Below are positions 1,950-57,644 of a DNA stretch of 64,000 nucleotides, piece by piece (the first letter of the stretch is position 1; the number at the start of each line of letters is the position of its first letter). The position numbers and the translations under genes were made by a program. Origin of the DNA: an uncultured Pseudomonadota bacterium (lineage in GTDB: Bacteria > Babelota > Babeliae > Babelales > JAUPTZ01); the NCBI GenBank assembly GCA_964429275.1, contig CAYSBJ010000001.1, positions 1-64,000 of the forward strand, in the 5' to 3' direction. The notes beneath the pieces were generated by a model. The model had not been told where the DNA came from. It ran no database searches and saw only the letters and a program-made list of their open reading frames with translations.

Positions 1950-2099
1950 AAAAGCTCCCATAAAAATTACTGCATAGGCTTTATTCTATACTATTTGGGC
2001 CAAAAAGAACAAGGGATTGGGCAGCACTGGCCTTACCAACGTGATAGTGTCACAACTCTACCAAAATAAAACAACAGGGAGGCCTAGCCCAGGCTCAAC

Positions 2100-3872
2100 T
2101 TAAAACGTAACCCGACAACCGGCGTATACATCGGCTTCTTTTGGCATATTTTGACCAGCAAACGTAAGAGCCGCTCCGGTTCGGATGCTAAGCCAGTCAG
2201 AAAGATGGTACACAACCCCGGCTTTGACCCGGTTGGCAAATTGCTCTGTATTAGCCGCCGCGAGATTGTTATCAAGCGCTATGCTATTATCCACCGTATA
2301 ATCCTGTGTCGTAGAGCTGTACTTCGCGCCAAGCCATGAATCAACGGTGCTTGAGGTAAAACGAACGGTATCTTTCCTCTTCCAATAAAATTGGTAGCCA
2401 ATATAGCCGGTAATGTCAGTTGTTTGTGGATGGCAGAAATGAAGCTCGCCATTTGCTACAACCGAATGCCAACTCACATCAGCCAGCTGAACCGAACCGA
2501 TATTTTTAATCATCGATTCCACTGGCGTCCCACACGTTTTTTCTGTGCGGGCAAGTGCAAAACGATACTCCGCATCAACATGTATCATTAGCCACGAGCG
2601 AGTCTCGGCATTCAAATGAATGCCCGTTCCTATTTCAAAATGGCGTCCATTTCCGGTATGAGACCGGTACGGGTTGCCTGTGTAATTCCCTTCATCCGAG
2701 CCACTACCACATGCGGTTGGCAATCGCAATAAGGCGCTCACGCCCCCCACAATGCGATCACCAAACGAGTGGTCGTAGTAAGCCTCAAGATCAATATCGC
2801 CTAACCCAACTTGGCGTGTCGTTTGAAATATATATCCACGCTCATACAACCACTGATGAGTATTTGCATTGAAACTTGAAATGTAATCTTTAATACCACT
2901 ACTAATACTGCCGGTAGCCGTACCAGATCCATGATAGGCACCGCCGACTTCATGAGTCGAAGTAACCCATACCGTCGCTTTTTTATCCTGATTTGCTACC
3001 CGCGTTGGTGTATTTATCGCAGCAGAATCGGCAAGCCCAGAAAAGCTCCCATTTCCAAAAGCATAAGTAGTTTTTTCATCAAGCCCAGTAAGCGACGCCG
3101 GCAACGCAGGAGCACCAAACGTTGAGGTATACAAAATACCAACTTTCGTCGGGCGTGGAACCATTCCTTCTGGCACATACACTGCTCCGGCGCCGCCATT
3201 ACGTGGATCTTCAGCAAATATATCGATGTATGTATTAGAACCATCAACCGCGGCATAATTTACTCGTGAAGTGGAAAAATCAGTTGTCGGAATTGCTTCA
3301 AGAAAGTCGAGCCGATAGGCAAACCCAACTTGGGTACTTGCCACCTGATTAATTTGAAAGCGAGCAACTTCTTCCGTTTGTGAATCACGACGAGATTCAG
3401 TATCTTTTCGCACCGTATCAATGGCACGTATTGGCGCCTTCACACGAATTCCCCAAGACCCCTTGCCATCAAACACAGTCCGCGAAAGATTCATAGAAAG
3501 ATTCATACCATTTTCATAATACTCAACGCGCGGCTGCATGAGCATAATACGCATAAAGGGATTATAAAATTCGGTGTTGTGCGCAACTAAACAATGCTCA
3601 AATATTTGGCTCATACGAAACGTATCGGCGTTGAAAAAGAGCGTAGACAACTCCCCCGCCTTCAGCCCAAACGAACCAAAAGCGCGATGCGCAGTGCGAC
3701 TATACCAGTCAACATCGCTTGTAATATGCCACTGAGATTTTTCTCTCGGGTCAAAATCCCACCCGCCTTGGCCCACAACAAGCGGTGCACGAAACTCTCT
3801 CGCCAATACACCAAGCGACATACACACCACCAACACACCTGGCATCAGAATGCGTTTTATTTTTCCAATCAC
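2100..3872 (-). CDS. Putative outer-membrane beta-barrel protein (590 aa), last gene of the giant-protein operon
   Basis: GTG start with AAGGAG RBS. Signal peptide, many amphipathic beta-strand-like segments, and C-terminus YAGCRVTF with terminal Phe (BamA beta-signal-like). Paralogous to 49880..51334. Confidence 0.75.
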   Translation of the reverse strand: MIGKIKRILMPGVLVVCMSLGVLAREFRAPLVVGQGGWDFDPREKSQWHITSDVDWYSRTAHRAFGSFGLKAGELSTLFFNADTFRMSQIFEHCLVAHNTEFYNPFMRIMLMQPRVEYYENGMNLSMNLSRTVFDGKGSWGIRVKAPIRAIDTVRKDTESRRDSQTEEVARFQINQVASTQVGFAYRLDFLEAIPTTDFSTSRVNYAAVDGSNTYIDIFAEDPRNGGAGAVYVPEGMVPRPTKVGILYTSTFGAPALPASLTGLDEKTTYAFGNGSFSGLADSAAINTPTRVANQDKKATVWVTSTHEVGGAYHGSGTATGSISSGIKDYISSFNANTHQWLYERGYIFQTTRQVGLGDIDLEAYYDHSFGDRIVGGVSALLRLPTACGSGSDEGNYTGNPYRSHTGNGRHFEIGTGIHLNAETRSWLMIHVDAEYRFALARTEKTCGTPVESMIKNIGSVQLADVSWHSVVANGELHFCHPQTTDITGYIGYQFYWKRKDTVRFTSSTVDSWLGAKYSSTTQDYTVDNSIALDNNLAAANTEQFANRVKAGVVYHLSDWLSIRTGAALTFAGQNMPKEADVYAGCRVTF

Positions 3873-3901
3873 TGCTCTCTCCTTTTCATAACACCAGCCT
3901 C

Positions 3902-6900
3902 TTAGTATCGATTAATGCGATATGTTTCCGGTGCGCCACTTGTCACCCCTCCAGAAGGGCTTGAACCTACAAAATACCCGCTCGCCAATGCTTGCTGAGG
4001 CGACACTACATTCCCAAAATTATCCTTTGCACTGGCAACCGTAGCCCGCACGATAGTTGCTACTGTTGCATCAGATGGATTTGGTACCAAGTAGCTTGTC
4101 AGCACACTGTTACCATTCGGTCCCGCAGGTACATATTTCGCTTTATATCCACCATAAATTGGCATACTTAAATCATTATATAACTCAACCAATGCAGCTC
4201 CTTGTGTATCGGCCGCGCCACTCACTGCCCCGGTCACTGCAGAACTTTGGAAAGTATAGGTTGTCGGCGTTGAAGGACTACTCAGCGTTGGTACCGTTAC
4301 CGTAATTACTTCTTGGCCTGTTGGATTAGTAGGAGAACCAGTTGGCGTGGTGTAGGTATAAATCATGTTGCTTGGGGCAAGGATAGTGTATTTACCACTA
4401 TCATTCGTACCGGTAAGATAGGCAGAATCACTCCAAATATTAAGCGACAATGGCGTATCTTGTGGAATACCCGCATCAACAAAAACTAAATTCCCGCCAC
4501 CGCGAATAAATGACTTTGTCGGATCGCCAAGGACAATAGTGTACTTGCCACCATTCATCGGATCGGTGACATCGGTGGTATTGTAATCAATTGGTCCAAT
4601 AGCAAAGACTGAGCCATATTTAGAAGTGGCCGATCCATCAAAGATTTGATTATGATCGAAGTAACCACTCAACACACGCAACGAAATATTTTTCACGTTC
4701 CACAACGACTGTACTTGCCATGGGTTAAAGGGCCCACTATCAGGATCGGTTGTTGGGTTTGGCGTTGTACCGTTAGGATTTGCAACCTTATTTACAATAC
4801 CAGCACCCAAGCCAAAGAACCCGTTGCGTCCAATACGACACAGTGCATTATCGCCATTCACAATGAGGGAGAAGTTTATATGCGTTTCCTGGGCACCAAC
4901 AACAGTGCGCGCATTTGTACCGTCAAGACCCCCATCAAGGATATTACCAACCTGGAATGAACCACCATTTTTCGACGTATCTCCAATCAGCATCTGGGCA
5001 TCTTGCACAATATTTATTGTTATATCAGTCGTATACGTTTGCGCATCTGACTCTACCCCTACAAGGGCATTGTCGTAAACAGTCATTTTTGACTTGCCAT
5101 CGAGAATAATATGTCCTATCCCCAAGAACTTCACGCGCAAATTATCAAATGACTGAATTGGATTACCAGTAGCCCAGACCCAACGCTCTGCGTCGGTTTG
5201 CAAGTTACTCATAATCACCAACTGGCTGTTATCGATAAACCGTAACGCTGGACCAACATGCGTCACCGCATTCGGAAAACGAATTTTTGCTCCCGGTTCA
5301 AGCACCAATCGCGTTTCGCCACTGAAAACAATTTGCTGGAACGGGGTACCATCAGTCCCAACAGCGCCACGACAAAATGAGCTCAGATCGATTTCACCAT
5401 TGGCAGGAACCCGTATTTCACGGGGAACATCAGAATAAAACACCAATTGATGCGGAGTTGCACCGTTACCAAAATTTTCTGTCGCAATAAGGGGTAATTT
5501 ATCAGTAATCAAAATATCAGAGTTCAAATCAACGACACCATTCCCGTTCGGATAAATTGTCACTTTATCAAGCCCTAGCTGATTCCATGCATTCACCGAA
5601 TTTGCATTCCACGATCTGCTACCAAGCCCAATGCGCGCACCATTATCAAGGAATAACGCACCAAACATTCCTTCACCCAACACTACCGGATCAGAAGTCA
5701 TAGTGACAAATTCTCGTACCCGAGAAAAACCGGTACCATCACCGCTCATGTACAAATGAAATGGTTTAGCACGAGTAGAGCCAAACACCTGTGCCTGATC
5801 AACAGTATCACCACTAGCCATAACCATCATGCCAGAACTTGGCATAGTTACCGGCACCGTCACCGAGTCCGTCGATCGTGTAATAGCGCGACCACTATAC
5901 GGCCAATGACGAGCAGGAGCACGTCGCTCAATTCCTTTAACTGGCTCAAAAGTACTTGGCGTTTCCAGTAAGTTAACATTAACAGCAACAATTGGATTTT
6001 TTCCATATTGATTTACCAAACGAGGGCTCGCATTTGCGATAGGATCAAAACCGCAGGTCTCCACCCGACCATGCGACTGGAATATAAATTGGTCCTCCGG
6101 GATGCTTACAATACCTGCGCCTTCAGGAATTGCACAGGTACGGCGTCCAATAACGGTATCAAGTATCATATCGTGCCCACCACTTGCTGTTATGGTACCG
6201 CCAAAATTAGCATACAAAATGCCGCCAACGTCACGTGCATTACGCGGAATAAGTTCGTTGCCTGCTGGCGAAATAATGCCACTACTATCATAGCGACCTG
6301 CCCCGCTCACATATACATTATCTCCCGCAAACTCAAGAACACCTCCACCATTTGCGTAGGGTAAAAAAGCACTCGAATTCGTAAATGAAGCATCTATAAT
6401 TACTTGCTGCAGGACATCAGACGAAAACTCCCACGGCGCAAAGTTGCTATCAACCTGAACAAACGTATCGCGCTGCGGCGTTTGATACTGCCCTGCAGCC
6501 CATCCAACATTTACCGTCGAGCGATCAGCAATATGTATGGCCTGAATCGCTCGCTCTTCAGCCGGCACGCCGGTCTCAGCAGCAGTCGTAATCGAAAGCT
6601 TTATCACACCCTCAGGATCCGTTTGAGAATTCACCAGCGCTGCTGGCAGTGGATTTTGACGAAACACATCAATAAATGCATCGCGTAACGAACTTTGCGG
6701 GTATATACCATTTTTGGTTACCAGCGGATCAAGCGTAACACCATCTGCCATGGTATTAAGTCGCGACCCAAGTTGAAAATAGCGTCCTAAACCACTTAAC
6801 TCAAGATCATATGCATGACCACGGTTGTACAACGTAATAGAAGAAATGTTATCGCCACTCGCTATCATCTCCTCATCAGACAAGCCTTGTGCTACACCAT

Positions 6901-9094
6901 GATCATAATCAATCAAATTATCTCGCACAACCCAGCGAACACCGGCACTCACAAAACTTTCGTGACACTCTATAGTGCTGTTAATAAGGTAAATAGGTGA
7001 TCCGGTATAATCAAGCACCCAATACGCAGGATCAAAAAACAGCTTGGTTGCAATTATAAGTGACGGTAATTCACCACCAACAACCGCAGGTACTGCATTA
7101 CCTGTACCAATAAAAGAAACATCGCGACCGACATCATTATGAATTAACCTTACGGTATCAAGAGTTACAATATCGTTAACGAGGATTTGACTGTTGTTGT
7201 AACGCGGATAAAGATACCCGTTCAACGGCAACGGCCGAGAAAAATCATTTGCAAGAAGCGTAGAACTTACCTTATACGCAAGCTCGCGACCATCATGTCC
7301 AAGCAGCAATGTTGGTACATTAATATATCCTCCTGCAGCAACTGTTTGATCAAATGTCGCGGTAGATGTAACGGTCACTTGGCCTTCAATATCAATAGCA
7401 ACTTCACCATTGTATGAAATTTCTGGAGCAATAGCCCCATCATCATCAAGCATCAAAACACTAAAGCCATCATACGATGCTTGACCAATGGTGCCGCCAA
7501 GATACTTTCCCGAAAATCCAGCAGAATGCATTCCGTGCGTATCCAGGGTGAGGCCAAGCGCGTGATCGCCTGTAGAACCAGTCAGCAAAGCACCAGAAAC
7601 ATTGTCCGCGGCAACACGCGCTACAATCCCAGCATTGCCGCGCAAAATAATCTGCGCCGTATCAGTTGCATCGTACTCGAAGAAAGGATCTTGTGCCGCG
7701 GTGGTACCTGTTTTACGAAACGCATTGCCATCGATAATGAATGCTGATGGGTTATGCAGTTTTACCTTATCGGGGGCATGCGTACTACCACTTTCAGTGG
7801 CTCCCGTTGGTACATGAACACCATCTTTAGGAAAGTTAGCAGAAGAGGCGTTAGTACGGCATGCAAAATAATCAAGAAATCTATTGTTCTCTATTTCCAG
7901 AGTACCGTTGTTACCAAGTACAAAACCATTTTGTACCGTGTTAGCAACAAACCACTGTGAGCTTATAAGCCCACCAACCAACGTGCTCAAATCCCCTGCA
8001 TACGAAGCTCTTGTTTGATCATAGTTATTTGCAAGGAGTGGATAAGAATTATTGTAGTTTAATACAACCAACCCCCGATTATTAAGCGGGTCATTCAGAT
8101 ACGTATGCAGTGTTGGTATTGTCGTATCTGAATATGCAGCACGCACCAACGCATCACCGATACGCATAGCGGCATTAATACCGGCACGATATTTATAGGT
8201 AACATTGTTACGCATATCGCTCGTCTGTACATCGGTAACACTTACTCCACTTCCCAGCACATAGCTACCGTAGATCATAAAGGCACCATCAGTAAAATCA
8301 ACCGGAGCACTGCCACTGTCAATCTGCAAAATCATACGACCGGTGCCACTATTGGATGGATCAAAAGATACTGACCCATATCCATAGTTAAGAGCATCGG
8401 AAACAAGTCCTGACTTGACCTGAGAAATAAAGGAAAAAGAGCTGTTTTGACCTATTCTAATAATTGAATGAAGAGAAGTATCAAGATTAACACCGTTATC
8501 AACATCAGGATCAAGCGACCAACGGTCAAACGAAAGCTGAGAATCAGCTCTTTGTTCTGTTAAATTTTGCTCCATCAATACGCGCCAGTTAGCACCAGTC
8601 AGTGTAATGTTTTTACCGCACGGTAGGCGAAATTGCACTTTCCCCTTGCCACGAACACCAATATGCATGGGCACTAAGCCATTTGACTGAAAGATAAGAT
8701 CATTCAGCACCTGCACCTCAAGAATCGACCCCTGCTCTATTACATCAAAAACAAGTATCGCTGGAGCCACTTCGGTCGATGTTGGATTAACCCCAGGGCT
8801 AATAGTAACTGAGCCAGAGCCAGTAGTCGCTCCAATCTTTATATAAGCGTGCGCATTAGCCCCCGTAAGCACAATAACGCGATCTCCCGGCGCATCAGAA
8901 GCGCAACCAGTCGGCGGCGCTAGGTGAACAGTTCCGCTCGAAAAAACAAGCGTGTTTCCATTAACCAAATCATAATCAGCAGTAGGATCAAATGTCGCAG
9001 TTCCCGAAAAAGTTAATGGCTCTGCAAAAAGAGATACTCCACACACTATTCCAATACCCACCATCCAAAGACAGTTGCGTAACATTTCCTTCAT
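3902..9094 (-). CDS. Large exported beta-rich protein (~1730 aa): shared module A+B plus a unique ~650-aa C-terminal region
   Basis: The ORF track starts it at GTG 9103, but ATG 9094 has AAGGTGG upstream. Signal peptide ends ...VSLFA-EP. Shares GYGSVSFDPSNSGTGRMIL, GFVLGNNG, VKLHNPSAF, VVGGEL, FQLGS and LRDAFIDV motifs with its neighbours. Confidence 0.85.
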   Translation of the reverse strand: MKEMLRNCLWMVGIGIVCGVSLFAEPLTFSGTATFDPTADYDLVNGNTLVFSSGTVHLAPPTGCASDAPGDRVIVLTGANAHAYIKIGATTGSGSVTISPGVNPTSTEVAPAILVFDVIEQGSILEVQVLNDLIFQSNGLVPMHIGVRGKGKVQFRLPCGKNITLTGANWRVLMEQNLTEQRADSQLSFDRWSLDPDVDNGVNLDTSLHSIIRIGQNSSFSFISQVKSGLVSDALNYGYGSVSFDPSNSGTGRMILQIDSGSAPVDFTDGAFMIYGSYVLGSGVSVTDVQTSDMRNNVTYKYRAGINAAMRIGDALVRAAYSDTTIPTLHTYLNDPLNNRGLVVLNYNNSYPLLANNYDQTRASYAGDLSTLVGGLISSQWFVANTVQNGFVLGNNGTLEIENNRFLDYFACRTNASSANFPKDGVHVPTGATESGSTHAPDKVKLHNPSAFIIDGNAFRKTGTTAAQDPFFEYDATDTAQIILRGNAGIVARVAADNVSGALLTGSTGDHALGLTLDTHGMHSAGFSGKYLGGTIGQASYDGFSVLMLDDDGAIAPEISYNGEVAIDIEGQVTVTSTATFDQTVAAGGYINVPTLLLGHDGRELAYKVSSTLLANDFSRPLPLNGYLYPRYNNSQILVNDIVTLDTVRLIHNDVGRDVSFIGTGNAVPAVVGGELPSLIIATKLFFDPAYWVLDYTGSPIYLINSTIECHESFVSAGVRWVVRDNLIDYDHGVAQGLSDEEMIASGDNISSITLYNRGHAYDLELSGLGRYFQLGSRLNTMADGVTLDPLVTKNGIYPQSSLRDAFIDVFRQNPLPAALVNSQTDPEGVIKLSITTAAETGVPAEERAIQAIHIADRSTVNVGWAAGQYQTPQRDTFVQVDSNFAPWEFSSDVLQQVIIDASFTNSSAFLPYANGGGVLEFAGDNVYVSGAGRYDSSGIISPAGNELIPRNARDVGGILYANFGGTITASGGHDMILDTVIGRRTCAIPEGAGIVSIPEDQFIFQSHGRVETCGFDPIANASPRLVNQYGKNPIVAVNVNLLETPSTFEPVKGIERRAPARHWPYSGRAITRSTDSVTVPVTMPSSGMMVMASGDTVDQAQVFGSTRAKPFHLYMSGDGTGFSRVREFVTMTSDPVVLGEGMFGALFLDNGARIGLGSRSWNANSVNAWNQLGLDKVTIYPNGNGVVDLNSDILITDKLPLIATENFGNGATPHQLVFYSDVPREIRVPANGEIDLSSFCRGAVGTDGTPFQQIVFSGETRLVLEPGAKIRFPNAVTHVGPALRFIDNSQLVIMSNLQTDAERWVWATGNPIQSFDNLRVKFLGIGHIILDGKSKMTVYDNALVGVESDAQTYTTDITINIVQDAQMLIGDTSKNGGSFQVGNILDGGLDGTNARTVVGAQETHINFSLIVNGDNALCRIGRNGFFGLGAGIVNKVANPNGTTPNPTTDPDSGPFNPWQVQSLWNVKNISLRVLSGYFDHNQIFDGSATSKYGSVFAIGPIDYNTTDVTDPMNGGKYTIVLGDPTKSFIRGGGNLVFVDAGIPQDTPLSLNIWSDSAYLTGTNDSGKYTILAPSNMIYTYTTPTGSPTNPTGQEVITVTVPTLSSPSTPTTYTFQSSAVTGAVSGAADTQGAALVELYNDLSMPIYGGYKAKYVPAGPNGNSVLTSYLVPNPSDATVATIVRATVASAKDNFGNVVSPQQALASGYFVGSSPSGGVTSGAPETYRINRY

Positions 9095-9174
9095 ACCGAC
9101 CACCTTTTTTAAAATAAGAAGCAGCTAGCATGATAATCGAGACAAACGCAAGGGTGTCAATGAAACCGCAATTT

Positions 9175-12100
9175 TCATCGCTTACGAGAATGACCGGTTT
9201 TTTTGCGACGCCGCGAACCCCCTTTGACCTGAATAAGAGATGGCGACTGTACCAGATTACCTGTTGCGAAGTGAGACGTATTTTTTGGTAGCACAATATT
9301 ACCGGCATACGGTCCAGTTAGTTCAGCGGCAGAAGCAAAATTTGCCCCGTACCCCTGTATGCGCGCGTTGTTTGTCAAGATCAACTGGTCCGCGGGAACA
9401 TTTATTGATCCTGCGAGCGCACCATTTCCCAGTGCAAAAGCCACCGGCGTATCAAGAATCAGCCGTCGAGACGCATCAGCCATTAAGGTACCACCGAAGT
9501 CAACATAGACAACCCCTGATTGATCGGCGCCATTAACCGGCTGTGCTGGCGGTAAACCATTCGTTCCACGAGCGCTTACACACCAACTATCAGTAGCAAC
9601 TCGCAACGTACCGCCACCCGTTACCCCAGGATTAAACTTTCTACTCTCATCAAACGTCACTCCCGTTAACGGAATATTCCATGGAGAATACCCATCAGTA
9701 GACCCAAACGGTAATGGCCAACCAATATTTATTCGCGATTTATGCGCTAAATAGAGAACATGTGTTGCCTTATCTCGCGCTGAAACATCTTGCTCACGGA
9801 AATCGCTCAGCACCAACTCAATCGTCGACGGCATTAATGCCGTTGCTCCTGGCGTCAGTGCACTACGATACACATCAATAAAGGCATCGCGAAGCAAAGC
9901 CGACTGGGTACCGTTACTCATGCGATTTGCTGAAGAACCAAGCTGGAAGACCGCTCCTCGCCTATGCAACGCATCCAACGATCGACCTCGAGAATAGGCA
10001 AGCAATGAAGAACTATTATTGCCATTCGCGCTATCATTTTCACCACTATCTCCGTTGTTTTCATGAATACTCCATCGCACACCAGCACTTATCAGCGACT
10101 CTTGGCACGCAATAGTACTGTTGCACAACGAAATACTTGGTCCATATGACTCACCAAACAAAACTGCTCGCTCGCCACCAATAATAGTCGGCAATGCCGT
10201 CATCGTTACGCTTGGCGCTTGAACCACGCCAAGATTGCGAGAAACGTCACTGTGAATGTATGTCACGCGATCAAAATGTACAGGTGCATTAACCAAAATA
10301 GAAGATGCGTTATAGCGTCTATACGAAGCGCCAACGATGAGTGGTCGATTACCATACAGTGGATGTTCATACGCAGTAGGAAGATCATTTACAGCCCTAT
10401 TTTCTGCATCAGCAAGAAAAGTCTCTATCCCCGCAGCAATGCCCTGTAAAAATACCTGCTGTACGAGGGCTAATGGAGGGAAATTATGAGGCAAGATTCC
10501 ACGGTCTGTCACTTCGTACCACGCACCACTGGCAAAATCGTACCCCCAATCTTGGATACCGGTAGTCCACAATCCAGTTGCTGTATTATAAGACCAAGCA
10601 GTAGTTGTTGGGTTATATACCCAGGTATGGCCAGAACCGTGCTTATACCACTTGTTCGCACTATTCGCGGCACTGATCCAATAAGGCTCACTGCCATCGA
10701 AATAGTACCAACCATCAGCAAAGGTTCCCCCATCAGGCATCCAACGATTATGAGCAGAAGTATACTGCCAACGAGTATCACTAAAAGACCACGCCCATGC
10801 ACCAGTTGTGTTATTGTACGTTACTTGGTTCTTGCCAGAACTATCGTTCCAGTAATACGGCCAAGGATCCAATGGACTATAAGAAGCCGTCCCATTACCA
10901 AAAGTATCGACACCCTTCAGCACTTGTGTTGACGATGACCATGTTAAACTCGGCGAAGAAGAAAGCGCATGTGACACAATTAAAGCACGTCGTATTTGGT
11001 GAGCAATCATAAACTGTGGCACAAATCGTGGCGGTAAAACACCTTCTGGCAAACTCGACCACGAGTCACTTATAAGATCATATGACTCGCCTGAATAGGT
11101 ATCATTACTCGGATCATACGTAATAGTTACATCACCATTAGTCCACTGACGCATGCTATAAGAATACGTCCAGCTTTCTGTCTCATCCGCGTTGGTCCAG
11201 GTGATAGTTGCCGGATCGTACGTCCATTTTTCTGATTCATTCAGCAGGTTTTGCCAGATCTTAGTACTACTGTTGTAACTGTACGATATCGGATTAAATG
11301 GATTAAGTGAATGAGCCCAACTCCATGAACCATCTACTGCCGCAGTAAATGCAATTTTACCGTCAACCCATGATGGTTCAGCTGGTGGAACTAATGTTGC
11401 AATAGCAAGCCTATCGCCCAACGTATTATCATACACAATACGCATGCCTTCGCTCGTATTCGAGGCAAGCCACGTGCCATCATCTTGCCGCGCAAAGGTT
11501 AAGCCTGCAATAGACCCAAATGAAAGAAATCCTGACGCCAAAGCAGAATCAAAGCTTGTGCGAATTTTTGCTACCTGCCGAGCTACAGATGGTGGTTGGT
11601 AGCCAGAAAGCGCCGGTGGCGTACCCGCTACTAACACCCATGTTTGTGCATACTCATCAAAGCGCCAGACTGTTTTATAAGCATTACTTACCGCAACACT
11701 TCCCCATGTCAGCGTTAGCGGATCATACCGCCAACGAATTGCATTGGCAGGATCATACCAAACATTAATCGCTGGGTAATAAATCCAATGCGCACCGAGT
11801 ACTGCTGGGGTTGCAGGATTATATTTATACCAATTTTGCGTTGCAGTTCCGCCGTTGAGCAACTTCCATGAATCATACACCCCACTAACCATTGGGCCAG
11901 TTACTATGGAAGTACTTGGATTATAGGTCCACGTACGTGACGGTGAGCCCAGTGTGTGCGTCCATGTCCACGCGTTGGTGCTTGGTGTATACACCAAAGA
12001 AGCAGAAGAATCCCCGGCCACATAGGTCAACGTTGGTGTGCCTGCACTTGCAAAATTTGCCGTCACAGTACCGTCAGGTCCCGTTATGCCAAATAAATCG

Positions 12101-35001: not shown

Positions 35002-37658
35002 GAGAGGACTCCATCAATTTCACGTCCCGTGTGGTCAATTTGAATAGAAGGAATGGTTACGTAGCCATTCGGAGGAAAACCAAACTGACTCAACACTGAA
35101 ACAAAACTCAGCTCACCTTCAATATCCAGTGCATGCTCACCATCTAAACAGCGTGCATCAGATCCTTCATTTAAAATCGGATTTCCATACCGATCAATTA
35201 CAATTGATTCTGTCGCTGAGAGCACTCCATTGCTATCAAGCACTGGACAAAAAGTACCATCGTATACTCCAACACCAATCGTAACATCAAGCGTTTCTGC
35301 ACCAGTGTCAGAATCGGTAGCAACTTCATTTACTATAGTTCCAGAATCAGAGGCAGCGCCACAGCGGAAAAAACAGCCTGCAGTACCTTCTAATACTATT
35401 GTGGCAAAACTCGTACCGGCATAAGACATGTCATATGATACGTTAGCTGAAGCACCATATGTGCCCAGTTCATCAATAATGAACGCCGAAGGATTGTGCA
35501 ATTTTACCGTAGAAGTAGTCCCCGCGCTTCCACCAAGCTGCAAAGGATCCACCGCCTGATTGGTTGTACCAGCAACGTAATCCAAAAAAAGATTATGCCG
35601 TATACGCAACTGCCCATTATCACCCAAAATAAAACCTGGTTGATACCCTTTAATTTTTTGTGAAGCCGCCCAATCGCTTGTTTCAAGAGAAGGTGCATGC
35701 GATAAATTTGAAGCTAAATATGGATACGTAGTATTGTTGTTAACAACTACAAGCCCACGCCGCATACTTGCATCACGATCAAGCCACGCGGGCAGATCTG
35801 CTTCTACATCCTCAACTAAAGTGCTATAGGCAAGATCATCGACGATACTAACTAGTGCAAGCATACCTGCTCGCTTATTAGGGAAGACATTTTCACGCAA
35901 GTCAGTTGCAATTACTGCACCACTTTCGCCAGTGCCAACTACCAACGATCCCCAAATATTAATTCCTGCATCAGAGCCAAGGCCAGAAATAATCCCTGGT
36001 GCAAGGTCAAGAATAGTTCGACCGGTTCCTTCATGGCACACATCGAATGCTAGAGAGCCATACCCAGGCGTATCAGCATCAGTCCCCGTTTCATTGTAAG
36101 AAACAAAACGCAGACATGACGATGGGCCAAAGAGTATCCAGGTAGTTTTGTTCGTCTCCGTGTTTACCGAAGAGGAATCGTCTGAAGCTTCTTGAGCGTA
36201 ACTCCATGGTTCAAAAACTACTTGCTGGACTCCAGAAGCAATATCATCCGCGGTTAAGTCCATTAATACTTGCACTGTAACACCAATAGATGCAGAATCT
36301 GGAGCAGCTGGCCCAAATGAAAGCGTCTTTCCTGACGGCAACCGAAAAACAGTAGAACCCTTCCCCCGGAAAGTCACGACAAGCGGTATCGTCGCGTTTG
36401 CTTGAAAGTAAACATTGTTCAAAACCCTTATCTCAAGCGTATTCCCCTCCGCCACATTAAAAATCAACTGCGCACATGTTGCCGAATCGGCTGGCTGAAT
36501 AACAACATCAGCATCGGGCAGACCGGTACCAAGAGTCAATACCGCATCGTTTGTTACTGACAATTCAATATCACCACTCAGCGCTACGGTATCCACAAAG
36601 GTCATAGTAGTAACTAAATCAAACGTAAAAGTGCCACCGCGGAAAAGACTGCTCGTTGTTGGGTCAATCAAGCCAACGTCGGAACCATCGCTACTACCAA
36701 ATTGAACACCACTTGCAAGTAATGTTGCATAAGCATCTTCAATGACTGCCTTATAATGAGCAAATGGTGTTGGCGGCAATAATGGCATTGCCTCCACAGG
36801 AGAAACCGTACCATCAGTTGTATCATGCCATAAAAAGTCATTAGTATGGTAACTCCACGTATGCAATGCACCAGTACCCGGTGGCGAAATTTTTACTGCT
36901 TGCGATGTCAGACCACCAGTAGCCAATGCAAGCTTCCACACAACATAATCCCATCCATCCGGAGGCGTGCTTCCAACAATATCCCACTGGATCTCAGTAT
37001 TTGTCATTGCTTTGAATCGCCACCACTTACTCGTCTCCTGCAAGAGCCACTGCCCATGCGTAAGATCAGAGCGGTACGTCAACGAAGAGCCAGAATCAGG
37101 GCTGATTTGAGACCATGTTTGCGCCGCTGAATCAAAGGCCCATTCACCACTTACGGGAACTGTTGGCGTGCCCGAAACAGTACGCACATAATTCCAAACC
37201 CGATCCTCCGGGACATACTGCCAATAGACTGAACTCACCGCTAAAAAGCTGTACAAGGACCCACTCAAAGAAGTACGCGTTACAGGAGACCATTTTTTAG
37301 TCGTTGCATTGTAATGCCATACTTGATGTGCATACGTAGTTGACGTTGTAAGATCATAGATTCCATCCGCAGTATTAACCCAGACACCATGACTATTGTC
37401 ATAACGCCACTGTTCTCCCGTTTGCATATTCTGAAAAACACTGCTCGCAGCCTGAAAAGTCCATTGGTTTGATGTGGCTATGTCGGTCCAAATCCAATCC
37501 CCAGTAAGTACTGCATACTCCCAATGGCTTGTCGCATCAGACCAAGAAATAACATTACCCCCTGGCTCTACCACCAGACCAGTGGCCACGCTGTATGCAA
37601 GCGAAGTTACACACAAAAAAATCATTAATAAAGAACGTATCTTCATGTTGAACCTCAT
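34998..37658 (-). CDS. Exported protein (886 aa): one Trp-rich repeat followed by module A only
   Basis: ATGA overlaps with both neighbours; an alternative start is ATG 37646. Signal peptide, then a W-x-(Y/F) ladder ending in LPPTPFAHYKA, then module A (FRGKGSTVFRLPSG, PGYGSLAFD, GTGRTIL, PGFILGDNG, VKLHNPSAF), ending at DHTGREIDG. Confidence 0.85.
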   Translation of the reverse strand: MRFNMKIRSLLMIFLCVTSLAYSVATGLVVEPGGNVISWSDATSHWEYAVLTGDWIWTDIATSNQWTFQAASSVFQNMQTGEQWRYDNSHGVWVNTADGIYDLTTSTTYAHQVWHYNATTKKWSPVTRTSLSGSLYSFLAVSSVYWQYVPEDRVWNYVRTVSGTPTVPVSGEWAFDSAAQTWSQISPDSGSSLTYRSDLTHGQWLLQETSKWWRFKAMTNTEIQWDIVGSTPPDGWDYVVWKLALATGGLTSQAVKISPPGTGALHTWSYHTNDFLWHDTTDGTVSPVEAMPLLPPTPFAHYKAVIEDAYATLLASGVQFGSSDGSDVGLIDPTTSSLFRGGTFTFDLVTTMTFVDTVALSGDIELSVTNDAVLTLGTGLPDADVVIQPADSATCAQLIFNVAEGNTLEIRVLNNVYFQANATIPLVVTFRGKGSTVFRLPSGKTLSFGPAAPDSASIGVTVQVLMDLTADDIASGVQQVVFEPWSYAQEASDDSSSVNTETNKTTWILFGPSSCLRFVSYNETGTDADTPGYGSLAFDVCHEGTGRTILDLAPGIISGLGSDAGINIWGSLVVGTGESGAVIATDLRENVFPNKRAGMLALVSIVDDLAYSTLVEDVEADLPAWLDRDASMRRGLVVVNNNTTYPYLASNLSHAPSLETSDWAASQKIKGYQPGFILGDNGQLRIRHNLFLDYVAGTTNQAVDPLQLGGSAGTTSTVKLHNPSAFIIDELGTYGASANVSYDMSYAGTSFATIVLEGTAGCFFRCGAASDSGTIVNEVATDSDTGAETLDVTIGVGVYDGTFCPVLDSNGVLSATESIVIDRYGNPILNEGSDARCLDGEHALDIEGELSFVSVLSQFGFPPNGYVTIPSIQIDHTGREIDGVLS

Positions 37659-40600
37659 TTTACTGACTCGATATCAGTAGTCTCATACAACTCTGGCACA
37701 TTAAATACATGTGACGAATCAACCTCACCAACGACAATGTAGTTTGGATACAGAGGCCGCTTAGAACCACTTGGCTCTGTACTTGGGTCTTCATCAGAAG
37801 TAAAGTCAACGTCATAATCTTGCACCGTACCATTTGGTAAGAAGTAAAGCTGATCACTTGGCGCTACAATCATGCCAGTAGCTGCTGGTAGCTGTGCTTT
37901 ACGACGACCAACAACCGTATCAATAAACAGCCGTGTTTTTGGTGTCAGCGATAACATACCACCACAATCTGCGTATACCACACCATCAACATCAGCTCCT
38001 GAGATTGGACGCTCTGGCGGCAATGCGTCAATATCATCACCAGCAGCGATACAGAATGAAGAGCCATTAAATTGTAAATTCCCTACACCAGTATCATATG
38101 GATTAAAGCGGAACCCTTTACTGTTTGCAGGATCAAGCGCCTGCAATTGTGAAAGAACGACATTATCCATAGCAGATGGGAGATAACCACTATCTCCTTC
38201 TAGCGTTGGCCATCCTAAATGCACTTGAGAACCATTAGCCAAATAAAGGAGATGGAGGCCATGCTCTGTATCATCTGCAACACCAAAGTCAGAAGCCGAA
38301 TCTATAGAAAGACGAATCGTTGTCGGACTGGCCGGCGGGATATTTCCTGCAACCAAGCTTGCAGTTGGCGCCGAGCGATAAACATCAAGGTACCCAGAGG
38401 TATACATAAGGCTGGTAGTCACCTCATCCGCAGCAACGTTTGCCTGGCTTCCAAGCTGTATAACACGACCGTATCCATTTTTATCATAATCACGTCCGCG
38501 GTCATAGCACACAATGTGCGAGGTATTATTAGCAAGAGTAGGATCAGTAACTGAAGATCCTAGTGCGTATTCTTGGACCGTAATAGCGGCCCCAGTCACT
38601 ACCAACGATTCATGACAATTAACCGTCGTACTATATAATTTCAGCAGGGGTGGATAAAGAGCATCTTGCAAGCTTGCAAGTTCACCGCCAACGACATGCG
38701 GTAATGCTTTAATAAATGGTTGCGGCAACACAGCCGGGGTATCAAGTTTTCGTGTTACATCACTGTGAATCCAATTAATAGAATCAAATATCAAGTTAGC
38801 GTTCAAAAAAATAGTTGAGCGATCGTAGATAGCATAATACGCTGCCGTTGAAGAAGAACCACTCTGTACCGGTAATGGACGAGTAAGGGCGCTGGCAGCA
38901 TTAACCGGCGCTTGCGTTAACGTAATATTTGTTGTTGAGTCAAAGGTCACTGCGCGGCCACTAATTGGCAAGAATACTGTTTGCGTCTGACCACCAGCAT
39001 TTGCAAGCCAAGAAGCCCAGGCCGCCCACTCTTCAAAATTGGTATACCCAAGCTCACGACCAGCATAATCAATTTCAACAGGTGGTACCGTGAAGAATCC
39101 AGCAACCGGCTCCCCTCGCTGGCCAACGTGTGAAACTATCGAAAGAGTGCCTTCAACATCAAGAGCGTGCGAGCCATCAAGTTCGGCAGTTTGCATAATA
39201 TTTTCGCCATACGTGTCAGTAATTGGAATATAAGTGCCATCATAATTACCAATGCCAAGGGCTACCGTAATCGCCTGCACAGTATCATTTACCACTGCTT
39301 GATCAAGATAGTACAATTCGTTCGTAAACGGTTGTAAAAAGAGCTTCTTTACAAAAGCATCAGTATCATTTGCCGCAGTCGCTCGCACAAAAAAACCAGC
39401 ATCGCCTTGCAAAATCACCGTTGGATGTGAATTGGCTATATATTGCAAGTCACTAATCGGAATCCCCCATTGATCGGTCTGGCGTGTCGATCGGCGCGGA
39501 AAACTTGGTATAGCTTGTGCATAAAAAGCAGCCGGATTATGCTTTTTTACTAAATTAGAAGTATATACAGAAAGATTTGCATGCGCCGTTGAAATAGATT
39601 GGTTAAAATTGTTCGCAATATAATCGATAAAATTGTGCGAATAGACCTCAATCTGTCCATTTACTCCAAGAACAAATCCCGGCTCATAATCATTCCACTG
39701 CGCCCACAATGAATCATCTATACGCAACGCACCTTCATAGTTATTAGTAAAATGTGGAATGCTATTATTATGATTGATAATAACAAGGCCACGACGATCG
39801 CTCACTGGTCGCGTAAGCCAACCTGCAGGATTAGAACTCAAATCACCAGTTGAAAATTCAACACGCTCTGCAAACGAAACATTATCAACAATGCGCATCA
39901 GCGCCTTAACACCAGCACGTTGGTTAAAATAAACGCCGGTGCGAAAATTAGAATTCAATACAATTGCTGGTGCGCGCGTCGTACTGGCAACCGTCGGAAC
40001 AAGCAACGCTCCATAAATATTAAATCCAGCATCGGTAAAGTCATTACCATTTGGATCCTGACCAGCACATAACTGCAAAATCATGCGGCCAGTTCCTCGA
40101 TTAGATGGATCAAATGAAATTGAACCGTACCCGGGCTGCAGTAACTGTTCAGCGACATCCTCCTTGCCATTAACCACAATGTTATCATTCCATGTTTCAC
40201 CAACACCGGCGTAATTATCCGAAATAAAAGCAAATGAAGATAATTGCCCCCACGTAATCCAAGTATCAAGAGAAAGGTTTGTATTCATAGCAGGTGTCAC
40301 AGTAGTATCAACATCATAGCTCCACTTCTCAAAGCAAAGTTGTTGTTGTGGTGCCACAGAAGAGTTGCCGTACACATCAATATAGCCCTGCTCCATATAG
40401 ACTTGCACATGCACACCTTGCGTACTAAGCGGCGCATCAGCTGGAATAACAATCGGGCTTCCATTCTCATCAGTAGTGCTAAACGCAGTATGCCCCGGGC
40501 TTGGTGGCCCAAATCGTAATCGGCGACCTGAAGGCAAGCGAAATACGGTACTCCCGCGACCACGAAAAGTTACATATAACGGTATTGACGCACCACCCGA

Positions 40601-41170
40601 AGAAGAGTTTGTTGGATCATGCGAAGAAAGAGCATCAGCACTTTCAAAATTAAGATCAGCGTACAAATTGACGACAATTACTTTACCTTCAGCAGGATTA
40701 AAAATTAACTGGGATGCACCGCTGCTCATAGTTGTTGTAGAATCAGTGTATGCAGAAATAGTAACCGGCAAGTTAGAGGCTGGTGTTGCAGGCGAGCCGA
40801 TGTTAATCGTAAAAACTTCCGGTTCAATTTGCGGATTACCGTTTGAATCTAACGTCGGATCAGAGCCGATAAAGCGAATTTCTACATCACCTTGGATGGA
40901 AACGTTATCGACAATCGTTAATACATCACTGCCAGTAACTTCAAAAATTCCCGCTTGCGTAATTGGCGAAACTGGCGTGCCATCAGGCAGATTCGGCATA
41001 GCAATGCTCTCTTCTACGAACTCAGTATTAAGGTCTGAGATAAAGCCGCCGCCAACGCCGCCAGTCCACGCACCACTACCATCAATGCTTCCCCATTGAT
41101 AATTCGTTGCGTGCACAATGACGCTGCTACAAATAAAAAGAGATAGTATATAAATAGAATGTTTGCGCAT
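37655..41170 (-). CDS. Exported beta-rich protein (1171 aa), intact module A+B; first gene of the operon
   Basis: ATG with GGAG 7 nt upstream. Signal peptide ...VIVHA-T. Motifs FRGRGSTVFRLPSG, PGYGSISFDPSNRGTGRMIL, PGFVLGVNG, VKKHNPAAF, IHSDVTR, VVGGEL, IQLGS, LGWP. Confidence 0.85.
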   Translation of the reverse strand: MRKHSIYILSLFICSSVIVHATNYQWGSIDGSGAWTGGVGGGFISDLNTEFVEESIAMPNLPDGTPVSPITQAGIFEVTGSDVLTIVDNVSIQGDVEIRFIGSDPTLDSNGNPQIEPEVFTINIGSPATPASNLPVTISAYTDSTTTMSSGASQLIFNPAEGKVIVVNLYADLNFESADALSSHDPTNSSSGGASIPLYVTFRGRGSTVFRLPSGRRLRFGPPSPGHTAFSTTDENGSPIVIPADAPLSTQGVHVQVYMEQGYIDVYGNSSVAPQQQLCFEKWSYDVDTTVTPAMNTNLSLDTWITWGQLSSFAFISDNYAGVGETWNDNIVVNGKEDVAEQLLQPGYGSISFDPSNRGTGRMILQLCAGQDPNGNDFTDAGFNIYGALLVPTVASTTRAPAIVLNSNFRTGVYFNQRAGVKALMRIVDNVSFAERVEFSTGDLSSNPAGWLTRPVSDRRGLVIINHNNSIPHFTNNYEGALRIDDSLWAQWNDYEPGFVLGVNGQIEVYSHNFIDYIANNFNQSISTAHANLSVYTSNLVKKHNPAAFYAQAIPSFPRRSTRQTDQWGIPISDLQYIANSHPTVILQGDAGFFVRATAANDTDAFVKKLFLQPFTNELYYLDQAVVNDTVQAITVALGIGNYDGTYIPITDTYGENIMQTAELDGSHALDVEGTLSIVSHVGQRGEPVAGFFTVPPVEIDYAGRELGYTNFEEWAAWASWLANAGGQTQTVFLPISGRAVTFDSTTNITLTQAPVNAASALTRPLPVQSGSSSTAAYYAIYDRSTIFLNANLIFDSINWIHSDVTRKLDTPAVLPQPFIKALPHVVGGELASLQDALYPPLLKLYSTTVNCHESLVVTGAAITVQEYALGSSVTDPTLANNTSHIVCYDRGRDYDKNGYGRVIQLGSQANVAADEVTTSLMYTSGYLDVYRSAPTASLVAGNIPPASPTTIRLSIDSASDFGVADDTEHGLHLLYLANGSQVHLGWPTLEGDSGYLPSAMDNVVLSQLQALDPANSKGFRFNPYDTGVGNLQFNGSSFCIAAGDDIDALPPERPISGADVDGVVYADCGGMLSLTPKTRLFIDTVVGRRKAQLPAATGMIVAPSDQLYFLPNGTVQDYDVDFTSDEDPSTEPSGSKRPLYPNYIVVGEVDSSHVFNVPELYETTDIESVK

Positions 41171-41175
41171 TAGAG

Positions 41176-41206
41176 CACTCCGGCGTAAAATTTTTACGCC
41201 GGAGTG
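41176..41206. promoter_or_regulatory. Perfect 15-bp inverted repeat (CACTCCGGCGTAAAA-T-TTTTACGCCGGAGTG) overlapping the operon's first RBS
   Basis: Arms 41176-41190 and 41192-41206 are exact reverse complements. The minus-strand GGAG (41181-41178) lies in the 3' arm. A regulatory role is inferred. Confidence 0.6.
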
Positions 41207-48106: not shown

Positions 48107-48228
48107 GCGTCATTGCGAGCGAAGTCCAGCTATCCAGACATTACTTATAGCTTGATTGCTCCGCCGACGCCCCTAACGGGGGCTGAGGCGTGACTCGCCG
48201 TAGTATCCAAGGCGGTTCGTCATGATGC
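48107..48228. repeat. Degenerate GTCATTGCGAG-type REP/RPE-like palindromic element between convergent genes
   Basis: The left end GCGTCATTGCGAGC matches the right end GTTCGTCATGATGC at 10/14 as an inverted repeat. Internal GCTATCC...GATTGC and GC-rich stems are present. Confidence 0.5.
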
Positions 48229-49869: not shown

Positions 49870-49879
49870 ACATCACCTC

Positions 49880-55625: not shown

Positions 55626-55637
55626 GGGTACACTTCC

Positions 55638-57431: not shown

Positions 57432-57644
57432 TTCCCGTGTTAATGCGATCGAACCGATCTTCTAAACGGGGTCATGCTAGCAACAGCAAAAAAGTTGTTG
57501 CAATAGTTCTGCAATACCGGCTTTTTATGCCCACAGCCCTTGCAAGCTGTCATTGCAAGGCACCAAAGCCACCAGAGCGGCTCATTTGATGCATAATTAG
57601 GCCCTATTATAGATATAAGAAAGCTATCTCTGTCAGACCTTAAA

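Follow-up and report, generated by a model that had tools for sequence, protein, structure and literature searches.

In type Va autotransporters, the passenger and a 12-stranded barrel form one polypeptide, and the barrel, about 280 aa long, matches the Autotransporter beta-domain (PF03797). Chaperone-usher pili have an usher barrel (PF00577) and a periplasmic chaperone gene. The TamA/TamB module consists of an Omp85 barrel and a DUF490 (PF04357) protein. Type I secretion substrates lack a Sec signal, carry a C-terminal secretion signal and go with ABC, MFP and TolC genes; giant RTX adhesins of the LapA/SiiE type, which have no Sec signal peptides, exit by this route. In type Vb systems, the exoprotein is described as having an N-terminal TPS domain with an NPNG turn, and the transporter as having two POTRA domains and a 16-stranded Omp85-type barrel (PMC5422565). 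COG4313 proteins are reported to have a mature length of 270-320 aa (PMC4493636). The conserved residues described for COG4313/FapF are Glu2 of the mature N-terminus, Asp-x-Thr in L2 and Pro-Thr-Gly in L3 (PMC4493636; PMC5557850).

In the window (the whole 64,000-nucleotide stretch of DNA analysed here), five co-oriented minus-strand ORFs encode proteins of 1171, 886, 8608, 1733 and 590 aa and span positions 2100-41170 (Table 1). The sequence-only reading had proposed this layout, with the first three genes coupled by ATGA overlaps, the other gaps at about 80 and 30 nt, and an N-terminal signal peptide on every product. Our analysis bore this out. Both overlaps were found, at the 1171/886 and 886/8608 junctions. 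The giant and the 1733-aa gene are 71 nt apart, or 80 nt should ATG 9094, behind aaggtgg, be the start of the latter, and 29 nt lie between the 1733-aa gene and the barrel gene. Judged by eye, all five proteins have Sec-like N-termini, with a basic n-region, a hydrophobic core and small residues before the likely cut. An independent sequencing run gave 42 contigs at at least 99% identity, which together covered every one of the 30 bins of 9000-28999; being short, they leave long-range order unproven. Codon adaptation of the five genes ranked from the 83rd to the 96th percentile of 836 ORFs, with GroEL at the 79th. No Rfam match was found within the window.

Table 1. Positions of genes, protein parts and regulatory features in the window.
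Feature	Position (nt)	Strand	Details
Hairpin, 14 bp	41176..41206	-	ends 8 nt before ATG of 1171-aa gene
1171-aa exported protein	37655..41170	-	signal peptide, two module halves, acidic C-terminal tail ending ESVK
1171-aa protein, module N half	39041-40990	-	aa 61-710
1171-aa protein, module C half	37781-38890	-	aa 761-1130
886-aa exported protein	34998..37658	-	signal peptide; ATGA overlap at each end
886-aa protein, ~1.5 tryptophan-rich domains	36654-37589	-	
886-aa protein, module N half only	35016-36653	-	aa 336-881
8608-aa giant	9175..35001	-	signal peptide aa 1-21, 42 tryptophan-rich domains, module C half, polybasic tail
Giant, 42-domain array	10480..34938	-	aa 22-8174; domains of 175-206 aa
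Giant, module C half	9178..10479	-	aa 8175-8608; ends in VKGGSRRRKKTGHSRKR
Sigma-70-like promoter TTGACA-16-GATTAT	9133..9160	-	giant/1733-aa gap; 10/12 consensus positions
1733-aa exported protein	3902..9103	-	1730 aa from ATG 9094
1733-aa protein, module N half	7280-8848	-	
1733-aa protein, module C half	5906-7279	-	
1733-aa protein, 667-aa C-terminal ext domain	3905..5905	-	part co-inherited with barrel
590-aa outer-membrane-barrel-like protein	2100..3872	-	GTG start behind aaggag; signal peptide

Searches of Pfam, NCBIfam, PHROGs, PADLOC and the PDB (sequence and profile) returned no characterised system, in line with the earlier impression that no recognised layout applies. The PDB searches (single proteins and three profiles) gave chance-level matches only. 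PHROGs gave a single match of unknown function (E 0.0073), and PADLOC gave none. In the literature, we found no account of such a system.

The closest layouts were then compared one by one with the pair formed by the 1733-aa protein and the barrel. Like type Va autotransporters, including chlamydial Pmps, the pair includes a large, beta-rich and Sec-dependent protein that resembles a passenger and is tied to a barrel by its C-terminal region, and both occur in host-dependent bacteria. Unlike in type Va, the barrel and the passenger-like protein are separate genes, and the barrel protein has about 590 aa. PF03797 had no match in the genome (E <= 0.1) or in 19 barrel relatives (E <= 10), and the GGA[ILV] motif was absent from the three module proteins checked. 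The likeness to type Vb lies in two adjacent genes, one for a giant exoprotein and one for an outer-membrane partner of about 590 aa, both with signal peptides. The difference is that the conserved coupling domain here is C-terminal and not an N-terminal TPS domain. None of 38 relatives of the 1733-aa protein had NPNG or NPNL in the first 400 aa, and the window's proteins contain a single NPNG, at residue 1442. By sequence, no Omp85, ShlB or POTRA family was among the matches of 19 barrel-family members. The ShlB model matched only BamA in the genome, and weakly, and the barrel profile against the genome's own BamA gave an hhalign probability of 0.1%.

The usher family PF00577 had no match in the genome (E <= 0.1), and the cluster holds no chaperone-like gene. 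PF04357 (TamB) likewise had no match in the genome, and the barrel is unrelated to Omp85 by sequence. The signal-peptide-like N-termini of all five proteins set them apart from type I secretion substrates; a TolC-like gene is present elsewhere in the genome, and none is at the locus. The 8608-aa protein resembles giant repetitive adhesins of the RTX type (LapA/SiiE) in being one very long protein with tens of similar beta-rich domains of varying number, and differs from them in its signal peptide. As far as sequence comparison reaches, membership in the autotransporter, TpsB/Omp85 and usher classes fails.

The sequence-only reading had taken the five genes for a single dedicated operon. This did not hold, for the barrel has one conserved partner only, the 1733-aa protein, and is linked to it through the C-terminal ext domain, which is absent from the 1171-aa, 886-aa and 8608-aa proteins. 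The barrel family was found in 156 and the ext family in 144 of 261 Dependentiae genomes, and their tallies by family match. Both were missing from three families (0/16, 0/14 and 0/8), and elsewhere the two counts were, for example, 24 versus 25 of 41 and 26 versus 28 of 35. Among 41 related genomes, the barrel occurred in 28 and ext in 27, in the same genomes but one. By our own tally of two tables, an ext-bearing gene adjoins the barrel gene on the same strand at 31 of 36 barrel loci; at the other five, a contig end cuts off the partner's side. In all 15 loci examined, at most 108 nt lie between the large gene and the barrel gene. Module genes, as the earlier proposal expected, co-occur with the barrel across Dependentiae genomes. 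A scan of genome contigs for the barrel gave seven loci, all titled Dependentiae, Babeliales or 'bacterium', which is weak evidence of rarity as fixed patterns were used. The conserved core is the 1733-aa protein with the 590-aa barrel-like protein, and it is old, extending across the sampled phylum.

Two further observations contradict one operon. The pair has its own promoter footprint in the gap behind the giant (Table 1). The hexamers and their flanks, TTCATTGACAC and GATTATCATG, are invariant in four of four genomes, the gap sequence around them diverges, and the extended motif occurs once in the genome. In addition, on the contig of a close relative, the pair lies behind a different, divergently oriented gene, and the three upstream genes are absent from that locus. 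No convincing terminator was found 3' of the barrel gene or between the giant and the 1733-aa gene. The locus is a conserved two-gene core with three upstream additions, not one uniform unit. Both core genes are under purifying selection; compared with a close relative (dS about 0.3), the 1733-aa gene has a dN/dS of 0.066 and the barrel gene one of 0.079. The ext domain shows a 23-residue hydrophobic periodicity, which 4 of 300 shuffles reached. A complex prediction with barrel residues 25-590 and residues 1300-1733 of the 1733-aa protein scored 0.00, a value that speaks neither for nor against binding.

The 590-aa protein begins, after its signal peptide, with a conserved mature N-terminus, R-E-F-R-x-P. 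Three strand-like segments (aa 105-150) are followed by a variable insertion of about 205 aa and a strand-rich C part (aa 356-590) ending in G-C-R-V-T-F. On our reading, the protein parses into three N-terminal strands, this insertion (203-267 aa in relatives) and a C part of about 229 aa. The terminal Phe noted earlier is real and is shared by 21 of 25 aligned relatives; two more end in Tyr, so the last residue of the G-x-x-V-x-F terminus is aromatic in 23 of 25. No hydrophobic helix follows the signal peptide, and the strand pattern is amphipathic. These features point to an outer-membrane barrel, and BamA is encoded in the genome. The barrel fold, like the terms 'beta-helix' and 'fibre', is a prediction from sequence.

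The motifs of the 25 relatives resemble those published for COG4313 and FapF. At the second position past the predicted cleavage site, 20 of the 25 have Glu or Asp; 22 contain G-x-G-D, and P-T-[G/A] was read in 18 (7 PTG and 11 PTA). The spacing from Asp to Pro is 26 residues in 17 of 25, compared with the 27 reported for Pput2725 (PMC4493636; PMC5557850). This comparison covers short motifs set against published descriptions. PF13557 (Phenol_MetA_deg) had no match in the genome (E <= 10) and none in 19 barrel-family members; the only link to this family is an Atlas look-alike cluster of the barrel, at rank 28, in which 21% of the members carry PF13557. A further likeness is to FapF, from the Fap amyloid system of Pseudomonas, where a separate barrel gene is described beside that of the Sec-exported protein it serves (PDB 5O65; PMC5557850). 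There are also differences. The mature barrel protein here has about 566 aa, about twice the COG4313 length, with the insertion and an N-terminal segment of about 80 aa, and no coiled-coil N-domain like that of FapF is evident. The partner is a protein of 1300-2000 aa, whereas the Fap partner is a small amyloid subunit. The COG4313/FapF channel is a 12-stranded barrel plugged by its N-terminal segment; the barrel here is a prediction from sequence patterns.

This resemblance raises the alternative that the barrel is a COG4313-type uptake channel for hydrophobic or other small nutrients, that its large neighbour is an accessory, at the surface or in the periplasm, capturing or processing the substrate, and that the three upstream genes encode unrelated surface proteins. 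Characterised COG4313 members are reported to be importers (PMC4493636), and Dependentiae are described as taking most nutrients from the host (PMC6561590). At 8 of 13 loci in other families, the pair lies 3' of four co-oriented ORFs of about 364, 290, 260 and 360 aa, which are potABCD-sized. At the one locus scanned, these were an ABC ATPase with a TOBE domain, two permeases and a solute-binding protein; the other seven were judged by ORF size. Against uptake, the pot-like genes lie about 150 nt away from the pair, and they do not occur at this locus or at 5 of the 13 loci. We also know of no COG4313 locus with a strictly adjacent partner of 1300-2000 aa, as found here across the phylum, or with a second barrel paired with an ext-type protein, as this genome has. 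There, a barrel paralogue (33% identity) is followed after 9 nt by a 1190-aa protein sharing the ext domain only. We regard an uptake channel as unlikely.

Outside the window's own GTDB family, the three upstream genes turned up only among a few unplaced metagenome proteins. They are genus- or family-level additions to the core pair. As their products lack the ext domain, they are tied to the barrel by gene order and a shared module only. The 1171-aa protein has 15 full-length orthologues at 36-80% identity. A hairpin lies upstream of its gene (dG -24.1 kcal/mol, z -6.66; 0 of 200 shuffles fold as well). Its 3' arm carries the only GGAG near the start codon, and it is kept in the relative genome G003, not in G001. 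No conserved promoter was found upstream of the 1171-aa gene.

The earlier proposal that four of the proteins share a conserved module held in part. A shared module exists; it has two parts, and BLASTP placed both parts only in the 1171-aa protein (residues 68-707 and 764-1125) and the 1733-aa protein (86-608 and 584-1066). Of the other two, the 886-aa protein is limited to the N part (residues 336-881) and the giant to the C part (8184-8604). G003 and G001 show the same arrangement, with complementary halves, an ATGA overlap and a separate signal peptide for each half. In an unsplit relative of 2240 aa, tryptophan-rich domains precede the N half, which in turn precedes the C half; in the C-half tree, this protein falls with the split giants (SH-like support 0.953). 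A programmed frameshift joining the 886-aa and 8608-aa frames was considered and rejected because the giant and its relatives retain their own signal peptides. hhalign among the N half, the C half and two ext parts gave nothing significant (best probability 16.9%). Regular solenoid periodicity was absent from both module halves, with the observed value reached by 66 and 172 of 300 shuffles.

Most of the giant is its tryptophan-rich array. A PPLPLVQQ- or LPPLVVVQK-type segment opens each domain, with W-x8-W hairpin-like units after it, and 247 of 548 W-W gaps are exactly 9. Domains 2-38 strictly alternate between two types, and domains 39-42 are degenerate. The 12 double units are 43-49% identical, with 26 invariant Trp. 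The repeats exist at the protein level only, no DNA tandem repeats being detected in the giant, and domain number ranges from 5 to 42 across relatives. The repeat domain matched no Pfam family at E <= 1, an Atlas search with a double domain gave no usable match, and a metagenome scan gave one locus, weak evidence of rarity since the pattern was fixed. The giant was also considered as a lipoprotein from its VGC; this was rejected because the Cys is not conserved among relatives.

The module proteins might instead fold in the periplasm and leave through type II secretins as enzymes or effectors, with the barrel as a porin or a surface docking site. The genome has three secretin genes, and the strongly conserved module motifs RRGL, GF-LG-NG and KxHNP could be catalytic. 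For TM6 genomes, components of type II secretion have been reported among the core genes (PMC4776705), and beta-helix pectate lyases are reported as type II substrates (PMC7949064). No enzyme family matched the module proteins, and a folded protein of 8608 aa is, in our judgement, an improbable substrate. The tight co-inheritance of barrel and ext would also need another explanation. This route seems to us quite unlikely.

The pair could also be a device of envelope structure, in which a periplasmic large protein links the barrel to peptidoglycan or the inner membrane and replaces the outer-membrane tethers or the TamB-like bridge apparently missing from Dependentiae. The second locus, with the barrel first and the 1190-aa protein after it, has sizes like those of tamA-tamB, and, as stated above, TamB had no Pfam match in the genome. 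Lpp, Pal, OmpA and OmpM tethers are reported as not detected in ten Dependentiae genomes (10.1101/2021.05.31.446380). In this genome, one OmpA-C-like domain is present, and the pair gave no DUF490 or Omp85 signal. The N-termini resemble cleavable signal peptides, not anchors, and a 42-domain giant on the same module suits the cell exterior better than the periplasm. We give such a device little credence.

We tentatively favour, at a little short of an even chance, a Sec-dependent surface system: the barrel would export or anchor the 1733-aa protein by way of the latter's C-terminal domain, and the paralogues would add a long fibre. Its first layer would be a Sec-exported protein of 1300-2000 aa encoded beside an outer-membrane barrel of about 590 aa. 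BamA would insert the barrel, which would pass the large protein through the membrane or hold it at the cell surface via the ext domain. The working likeness is a type V or Fap system with the barrel as a separate gene. In the second layer, limited to the genus and family, duplicates of the large protein may have lost the ext domain. One duplicate would have stayed whole (1171 aa), and another would have split into genes for an N half (886 aa) and a C half (8608 aa), each with its own signal peptide and N-terminal tryptophan-rich domains (about 1.5 and 42). The two halves most likely re-associate into one module, which probably attaches to the 1733-aa protein or shares its barrel. If so, a fibre of 42 domains would extend from the cell, and its probable role would be to contact the protist host. 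A stronger version, that the barrel/ext pair is a distinct secretion or anchoring system confined to Dependentiae and that the genus builds a fibre from a re-associating split module and a 42-domain stalk with an unseen tryptophan-zipper-like fold, is possible and rather doubtful.

Dependentiae are widespread obligate protist parasites, and their lipopolysaccharide synthesis is reported as lost (PMC6561590, PMC4776705). The presence of the pair in more than half of the sampled genomes, strong purifying selection and codon usage of the well-expressed type make it a leading candidate for a major surface structure and for the apparatus of first host contact. The window is a natural experiment in which this pair was elaborated by gene duplication, gene fission and repeat expansion to 8608 residues, and it illustrates how giant adhesin-like proteins can evolve. 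If the barrel is a polypeptide pore, a split variant would be added to the type V/Fap secretion group. If the stronger version is true, Dependentiae would have a new way to mount giant proteins on an outer membrane poor in lipopolysaccharide, and the fibre itself would be of a new architecture.

The window is the opening 64 kb of a 570-kb contig, in a genome of 1.21 Mb and 8 contigs that is 98% complete. Two window proteins had nearest relatives labelled 'Candidatus Dependentiae bacterium' in the sources. The cluster showed no compositional break (G+C 45–49%). As the sequence-only reading had proposed, five minus-strand ORFs of 1171, 886, 8608 (the giant), 1733 and 590 aa (the predicted barrel) were found in the cluster, and the 1171-, 886- and 8608-aa genes are linked by ATGA overlaps. 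The remaining gaps are 71 nt (giant/1733) and 29 nt (1733/barrel); the former would be 80 nt were translation of the 1733-aa protein to begin at ATG 9094, which has the better ribosome-binding site. Judged by eye, all five N-termini carry cleavable-looking Sec signal peptides. An assembly artefact of near-identical repeats was ruled out as the source of the giant frame; its units are only 43–49% identical at the protein level. No DNA tandem repeat was detectable in the giant gene. From an independent run, 42 contigs at at least 99% identity covered 30 of 30 bins of positions 9000–28999, being too short to establish the long-range order of the giant array.

Features of the cluster and of related loci
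Feature	Position (nt, strand)	N half (residues)	C half (residues)	Other parts or remarks
1171-aa protein		68-707	764-1125	acidic tail
886-aa protein		336-881	none	~1.5 tryptophan-rich domains N-terminally
8608-aa protein (giant)		none	8184-8604	42 tryptophan-rich domains; polybasic tail
1733-aa protein		86-608	584-1066	667-aa C-terminal ext domain
Cluster of five genes	2100-41170 (-)
Polybasic tail of giant	9178-9230 (-)
14-bp hairpin	41176-41206 (-)
Giant, stretch with the type A 8-residue segment	20422-34413 (-)
653-aa gene downstream of barrel	3-1961 (-)
Six successive ORFs	48220-60056 (-)			549, 500, 903, 530, 597, 803 aa
Divergently oriented gene, closest relative	L026:1886-2334			upstream of 1733-aa gene
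Second barrel/1190-aa locus (L033)	G000:C1:98607-104060			outside window
1790-aa gene (L034)	G000:C1:116498-121870			outside window

The barrel was inherited together with the ext domain. Among 41 related genomes, the barrel was present in 28 and ext in 27, and the two genome sets were identical but for one. By our own tally, an ext-bearing gene adjoined the barrel on the same strand at 31 of the 36 barrel loci in these genomes; at the other five, a contig end cut the partner's side. At the phylum scale, where all 261 genomes belong to one order, the barrel profile matched 156 and the ext profile 144. Three families had neither (0/16, 0/14 and 0/8 for both). The paired barrel and ext tallies in other families were 24 vs 25 of 41, 26 vs 28 of 35 and 44 vs 50 of 80, and 0 vs 3 of 4 in one family with weak barrel matches. 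At 15 of 15 loci examined, a large gene lay immediately upstream of the barrel (gap ≤108 nt), encoding a protein of 1334–1998 aa with the N half, the C half and ext. Titled loci matched by the barrel came from Dependentiae or Babeliales genomes. Against a close relative (dS ~0.3), the 1733-aa gene had a dN/dS of 0.066 and the barrel one of 0.079.

Two further ext copies were found in the window's genome. One forms the C-terminus of a 1190-aa protein, encoded 9 nt after a second barrel paralogue (33% identity); ext is the sole part that this protein shares. The other belongs to a 1790-aa protein with no adjoining barrel and with weak tryptophan-repeat-like matches at its N-terminus. At two loci of one family (L019 and L020, in G021 and G038), one large-protein gene was followed by two tandem barrel genes, a local barrel duplication. 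Four co-oriented ORFs (~364, 290, 260 and 360 aa) lay ~150 nt upstream of the pair at eight of 13 other-family loci (L012–L015, L017, L023–L025). At L013 the set is potABCD-like, consisting of a TOBE-domain ABC ATPase, a pair of permeases and a solute-binding protein; the remaining seven loci were assigned by ORF size only.

The five genes had been read as a single operon. Two units, 1171-886-8608 and 1733-590, fit better, because the pair has its own candidate promoter and stands without the giant in the closest relative's contig. The candidate promoter, TTGACA-16-GATTAT, lies within the 71-nt gap. Both hexamers and their flanks were identical between the window and each of three relatives, while the rest of the gap diverged, reaching 350 nt in one of them. 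Within the genome, the extended motif is unique. From its sequence, the pair is predicted to have its own promoter. No terminator was found between the giant and the pair, so read-through from upstream is possible. In the closest relative's contig (L026), similarity to the window ends at 9204, 30 nt inside the giant's 3' end, and the gene upstream belongs to another family, that of the 653-aa gene. This family is small and has copies on contig C3. The L026 arrangement reflects either a genuine rearrangement or chimerism of the contig.

The perfect 14-bp hairpin ends 8 nt ahead of the ATG of the 1171-aa gene (dG −24.1 kcal/mol, z −6.7) and hides the only GGAG near it. It is present in relative G003, not in G001, and may act as a translational brake. 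The codon adaptation reference comprised 24 ribosomal-protein-cluster genes and GroEL, recognized by position beside L2 and by the look of the N-terminus, not individually checked. On this scale the five cluster genes ranked at the 83rd–96th percentile of 836 ORFs, compared with the 79th for GroEL and 99.8th for EF-Tu; the second barrel and its partner ranked at the 64th and 50th.

All-against-all BLASTP of the cluster proteins bore out only in part the claim that four of them share a module. The module is bipartite; the 1171- and 1733-aa proteins have both halves, and the 886-aa protein and the giant have one half each. The N half ends where the 886-aa protein ends, and the final domain of the giant passes directly into the C half. 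In an unsplit 2240-aa protein, a signal peptide, tryptophan-rich domains, N half and C half occur in a single chain. In relatives G001 and G003 the module is likewise split, the ATGA overlap is kept and the giant has a signal peptide of its own, indicating that the fission is old and maintained rather than a broken gene. A polybasic tail after P-[V/I]-K ends eight of the 13 giant-type proteins listed, and 1171-type proteins have an acidic C-terminal tail (ELYET..ESVK). These opposite charges may reflect a contact or a membrane-binding tail.

The 1171-, 886- and 8608-aa genes are recent additions. With the 1171-aa query, all genes of these three types that were found came from the GTDB family of the window, and other families yielded the 1733-type gene only. 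The entire module family comprised 82 representatives at E ≤0.001 among 1.84 billion proteins. In a midpoint-rooted FastTree of 96 C halves (SH-like supports), groups were formed by the split giants (13 tips, 0.91; 0.953 with two unsplit proteins), the 1171-type (25 tips, 0.96) and the own-family 1733-type (12 tips, 0.998). These three groups joined (53 tips, 0.999), and other families' 1733-type proteins were separate.

Between its signal peptide and C half, the giant carries 42 domains of 175–206 aa with 10–15 Trp apiece. Domains 2–38 alternate strictly between two types, and 39–42 are degenerate. The Trp-to-Trp gap is exactly 9 residues in 247 of 548 cases, giving a W-x8-W hairpin-like unit, and 26 Trp are invariant across 12 double units. 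Of the 12 double units, 7 have an 8-residue segment in the type A domain that the other 5 lack, a hint of higher-order repetition beyond the A/B pair. Array size is ~30 in G003 (6301-aa frame), 6 in G001 (1597 aa) and 5–14 in other relatives. The arrays of the window's genome and G003 are colinear at the ends and in one inner block, not elsewhere. The domain profile matched four of 261 phylum genomes, all of the window's genus, and one metagenomic locus.

Searches of Pfam, NCBIfam and PDB sequences gave no match for the five proteins, including the giant as two pieces. PHROGs and PADLOC, searched with the four smaller proteins and two giant stretches, gave only one PHROGs match (E 0.0073, function unknown). 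The large proteins appear beta-rich and are acidic, with abundant Gly, Asn, Thr and Ser. The ext domain has a 23-residue hydrophobic periodicity, attained by 4 of 300 shuffles and compatible with a putative beta-solenoid. The same analysis found no such periodicity in the module halves, so no beta-helix is proposed here for the module. Elsewhere in the window, six successive ORFs start with what look like signal peptides and matched nothing in Pfam; one weak stretch (E 6e-4) is common to two of them.

After its signal peptide, the barrel has no hydrophobic helix, and amphipathic strand-like segments occur at residues 105–150 and 355–590. Its C-terminus, G-C-R-V-T-F, agrees with the usual C-terminal beta-signal, and 23 of 25 relatives have an aromatic final residue. 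BamA is encoded in the genome. By sequence, the barrel showed no autotransporter-domain, ShlB/Omp85 or usher membership. An Atlas look-alike cluster at rank 28 has PF13557 on 21% of its members; PF13557 itself did not match the barrel. COG4313 proteins have conserved Glu2 (mature N-terminus), Asp92-x-Thr94 and Pro119-Thr120-Gly121, according to section 7 of PMC4493636, and a passage of PMC5557850 places PTG motifs at loop 5-6 of FapF. Among 25 barrel relatives, Glu/Asp is second after the predicted cleavage in 20, with Arg following in 21 and Pro in all 25; G-x-G-D occurs in 22, and a P-T-[G/A] was recognized in 18. Asp and Pro are 26 residues apart in 17/25, versus 27 in Pput2725. The mature protein is roughly double the length of COG4313 proteins. 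These motifs agree with a possible COG4313/FapF relationship, short of homology. The barrel would comprise an ~80-aa N-terminal segment, three strands, a variable insertion and the remaining strands. The insertion, ~205 aa here and 203–267 aa across relatives, would sit outside the cell. That the barrel is instead an uptake channel with the large protein as its accessory seems unlikely. The genome encodes three secretins, a TolC-like gene and one OmpA-C-like domain, and no TamB (PF04357) match was found in it. Exit of the large proteins by type II secretion is somewhat less probable still, and we consider it quite improbable that the pair is a periplasmic tether.

The Dependentiae genome papers PMC6561590, PMC4776705 and PMC4378268 contained no mention of the system in the passages covered, and the titles and abstracts retrieved for 'Dependentiae' and 'autotransporter' described none. 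New in this analysis are the two-part module and the conservation of its fission, the family of tryptophan-rich domains with arrays of 5 to 42, the footprint of the internal promoter, and the counts of barrel and ext across the phylum.

From gene anatomy, co-inheritance and analogy, we infer the following as the best-supported mechanism. All five proteins would be exported by Sec, and the barrel would be inserted in a BamA-dependent manner. Barrel and ext would work together to export or anchor the 1733-aa protein, and the ext-less paralogues would attach through the common module. One module, bearing the 42-domain stalk, would be rebuilt from the N-half and C-half proteins. At a guessed 4–5 nm per domain, the stalk would be on the order of 200 nm long; the Chromulinavorax cell diameter is given as 350–400 nm in a passage of PMC6561590.
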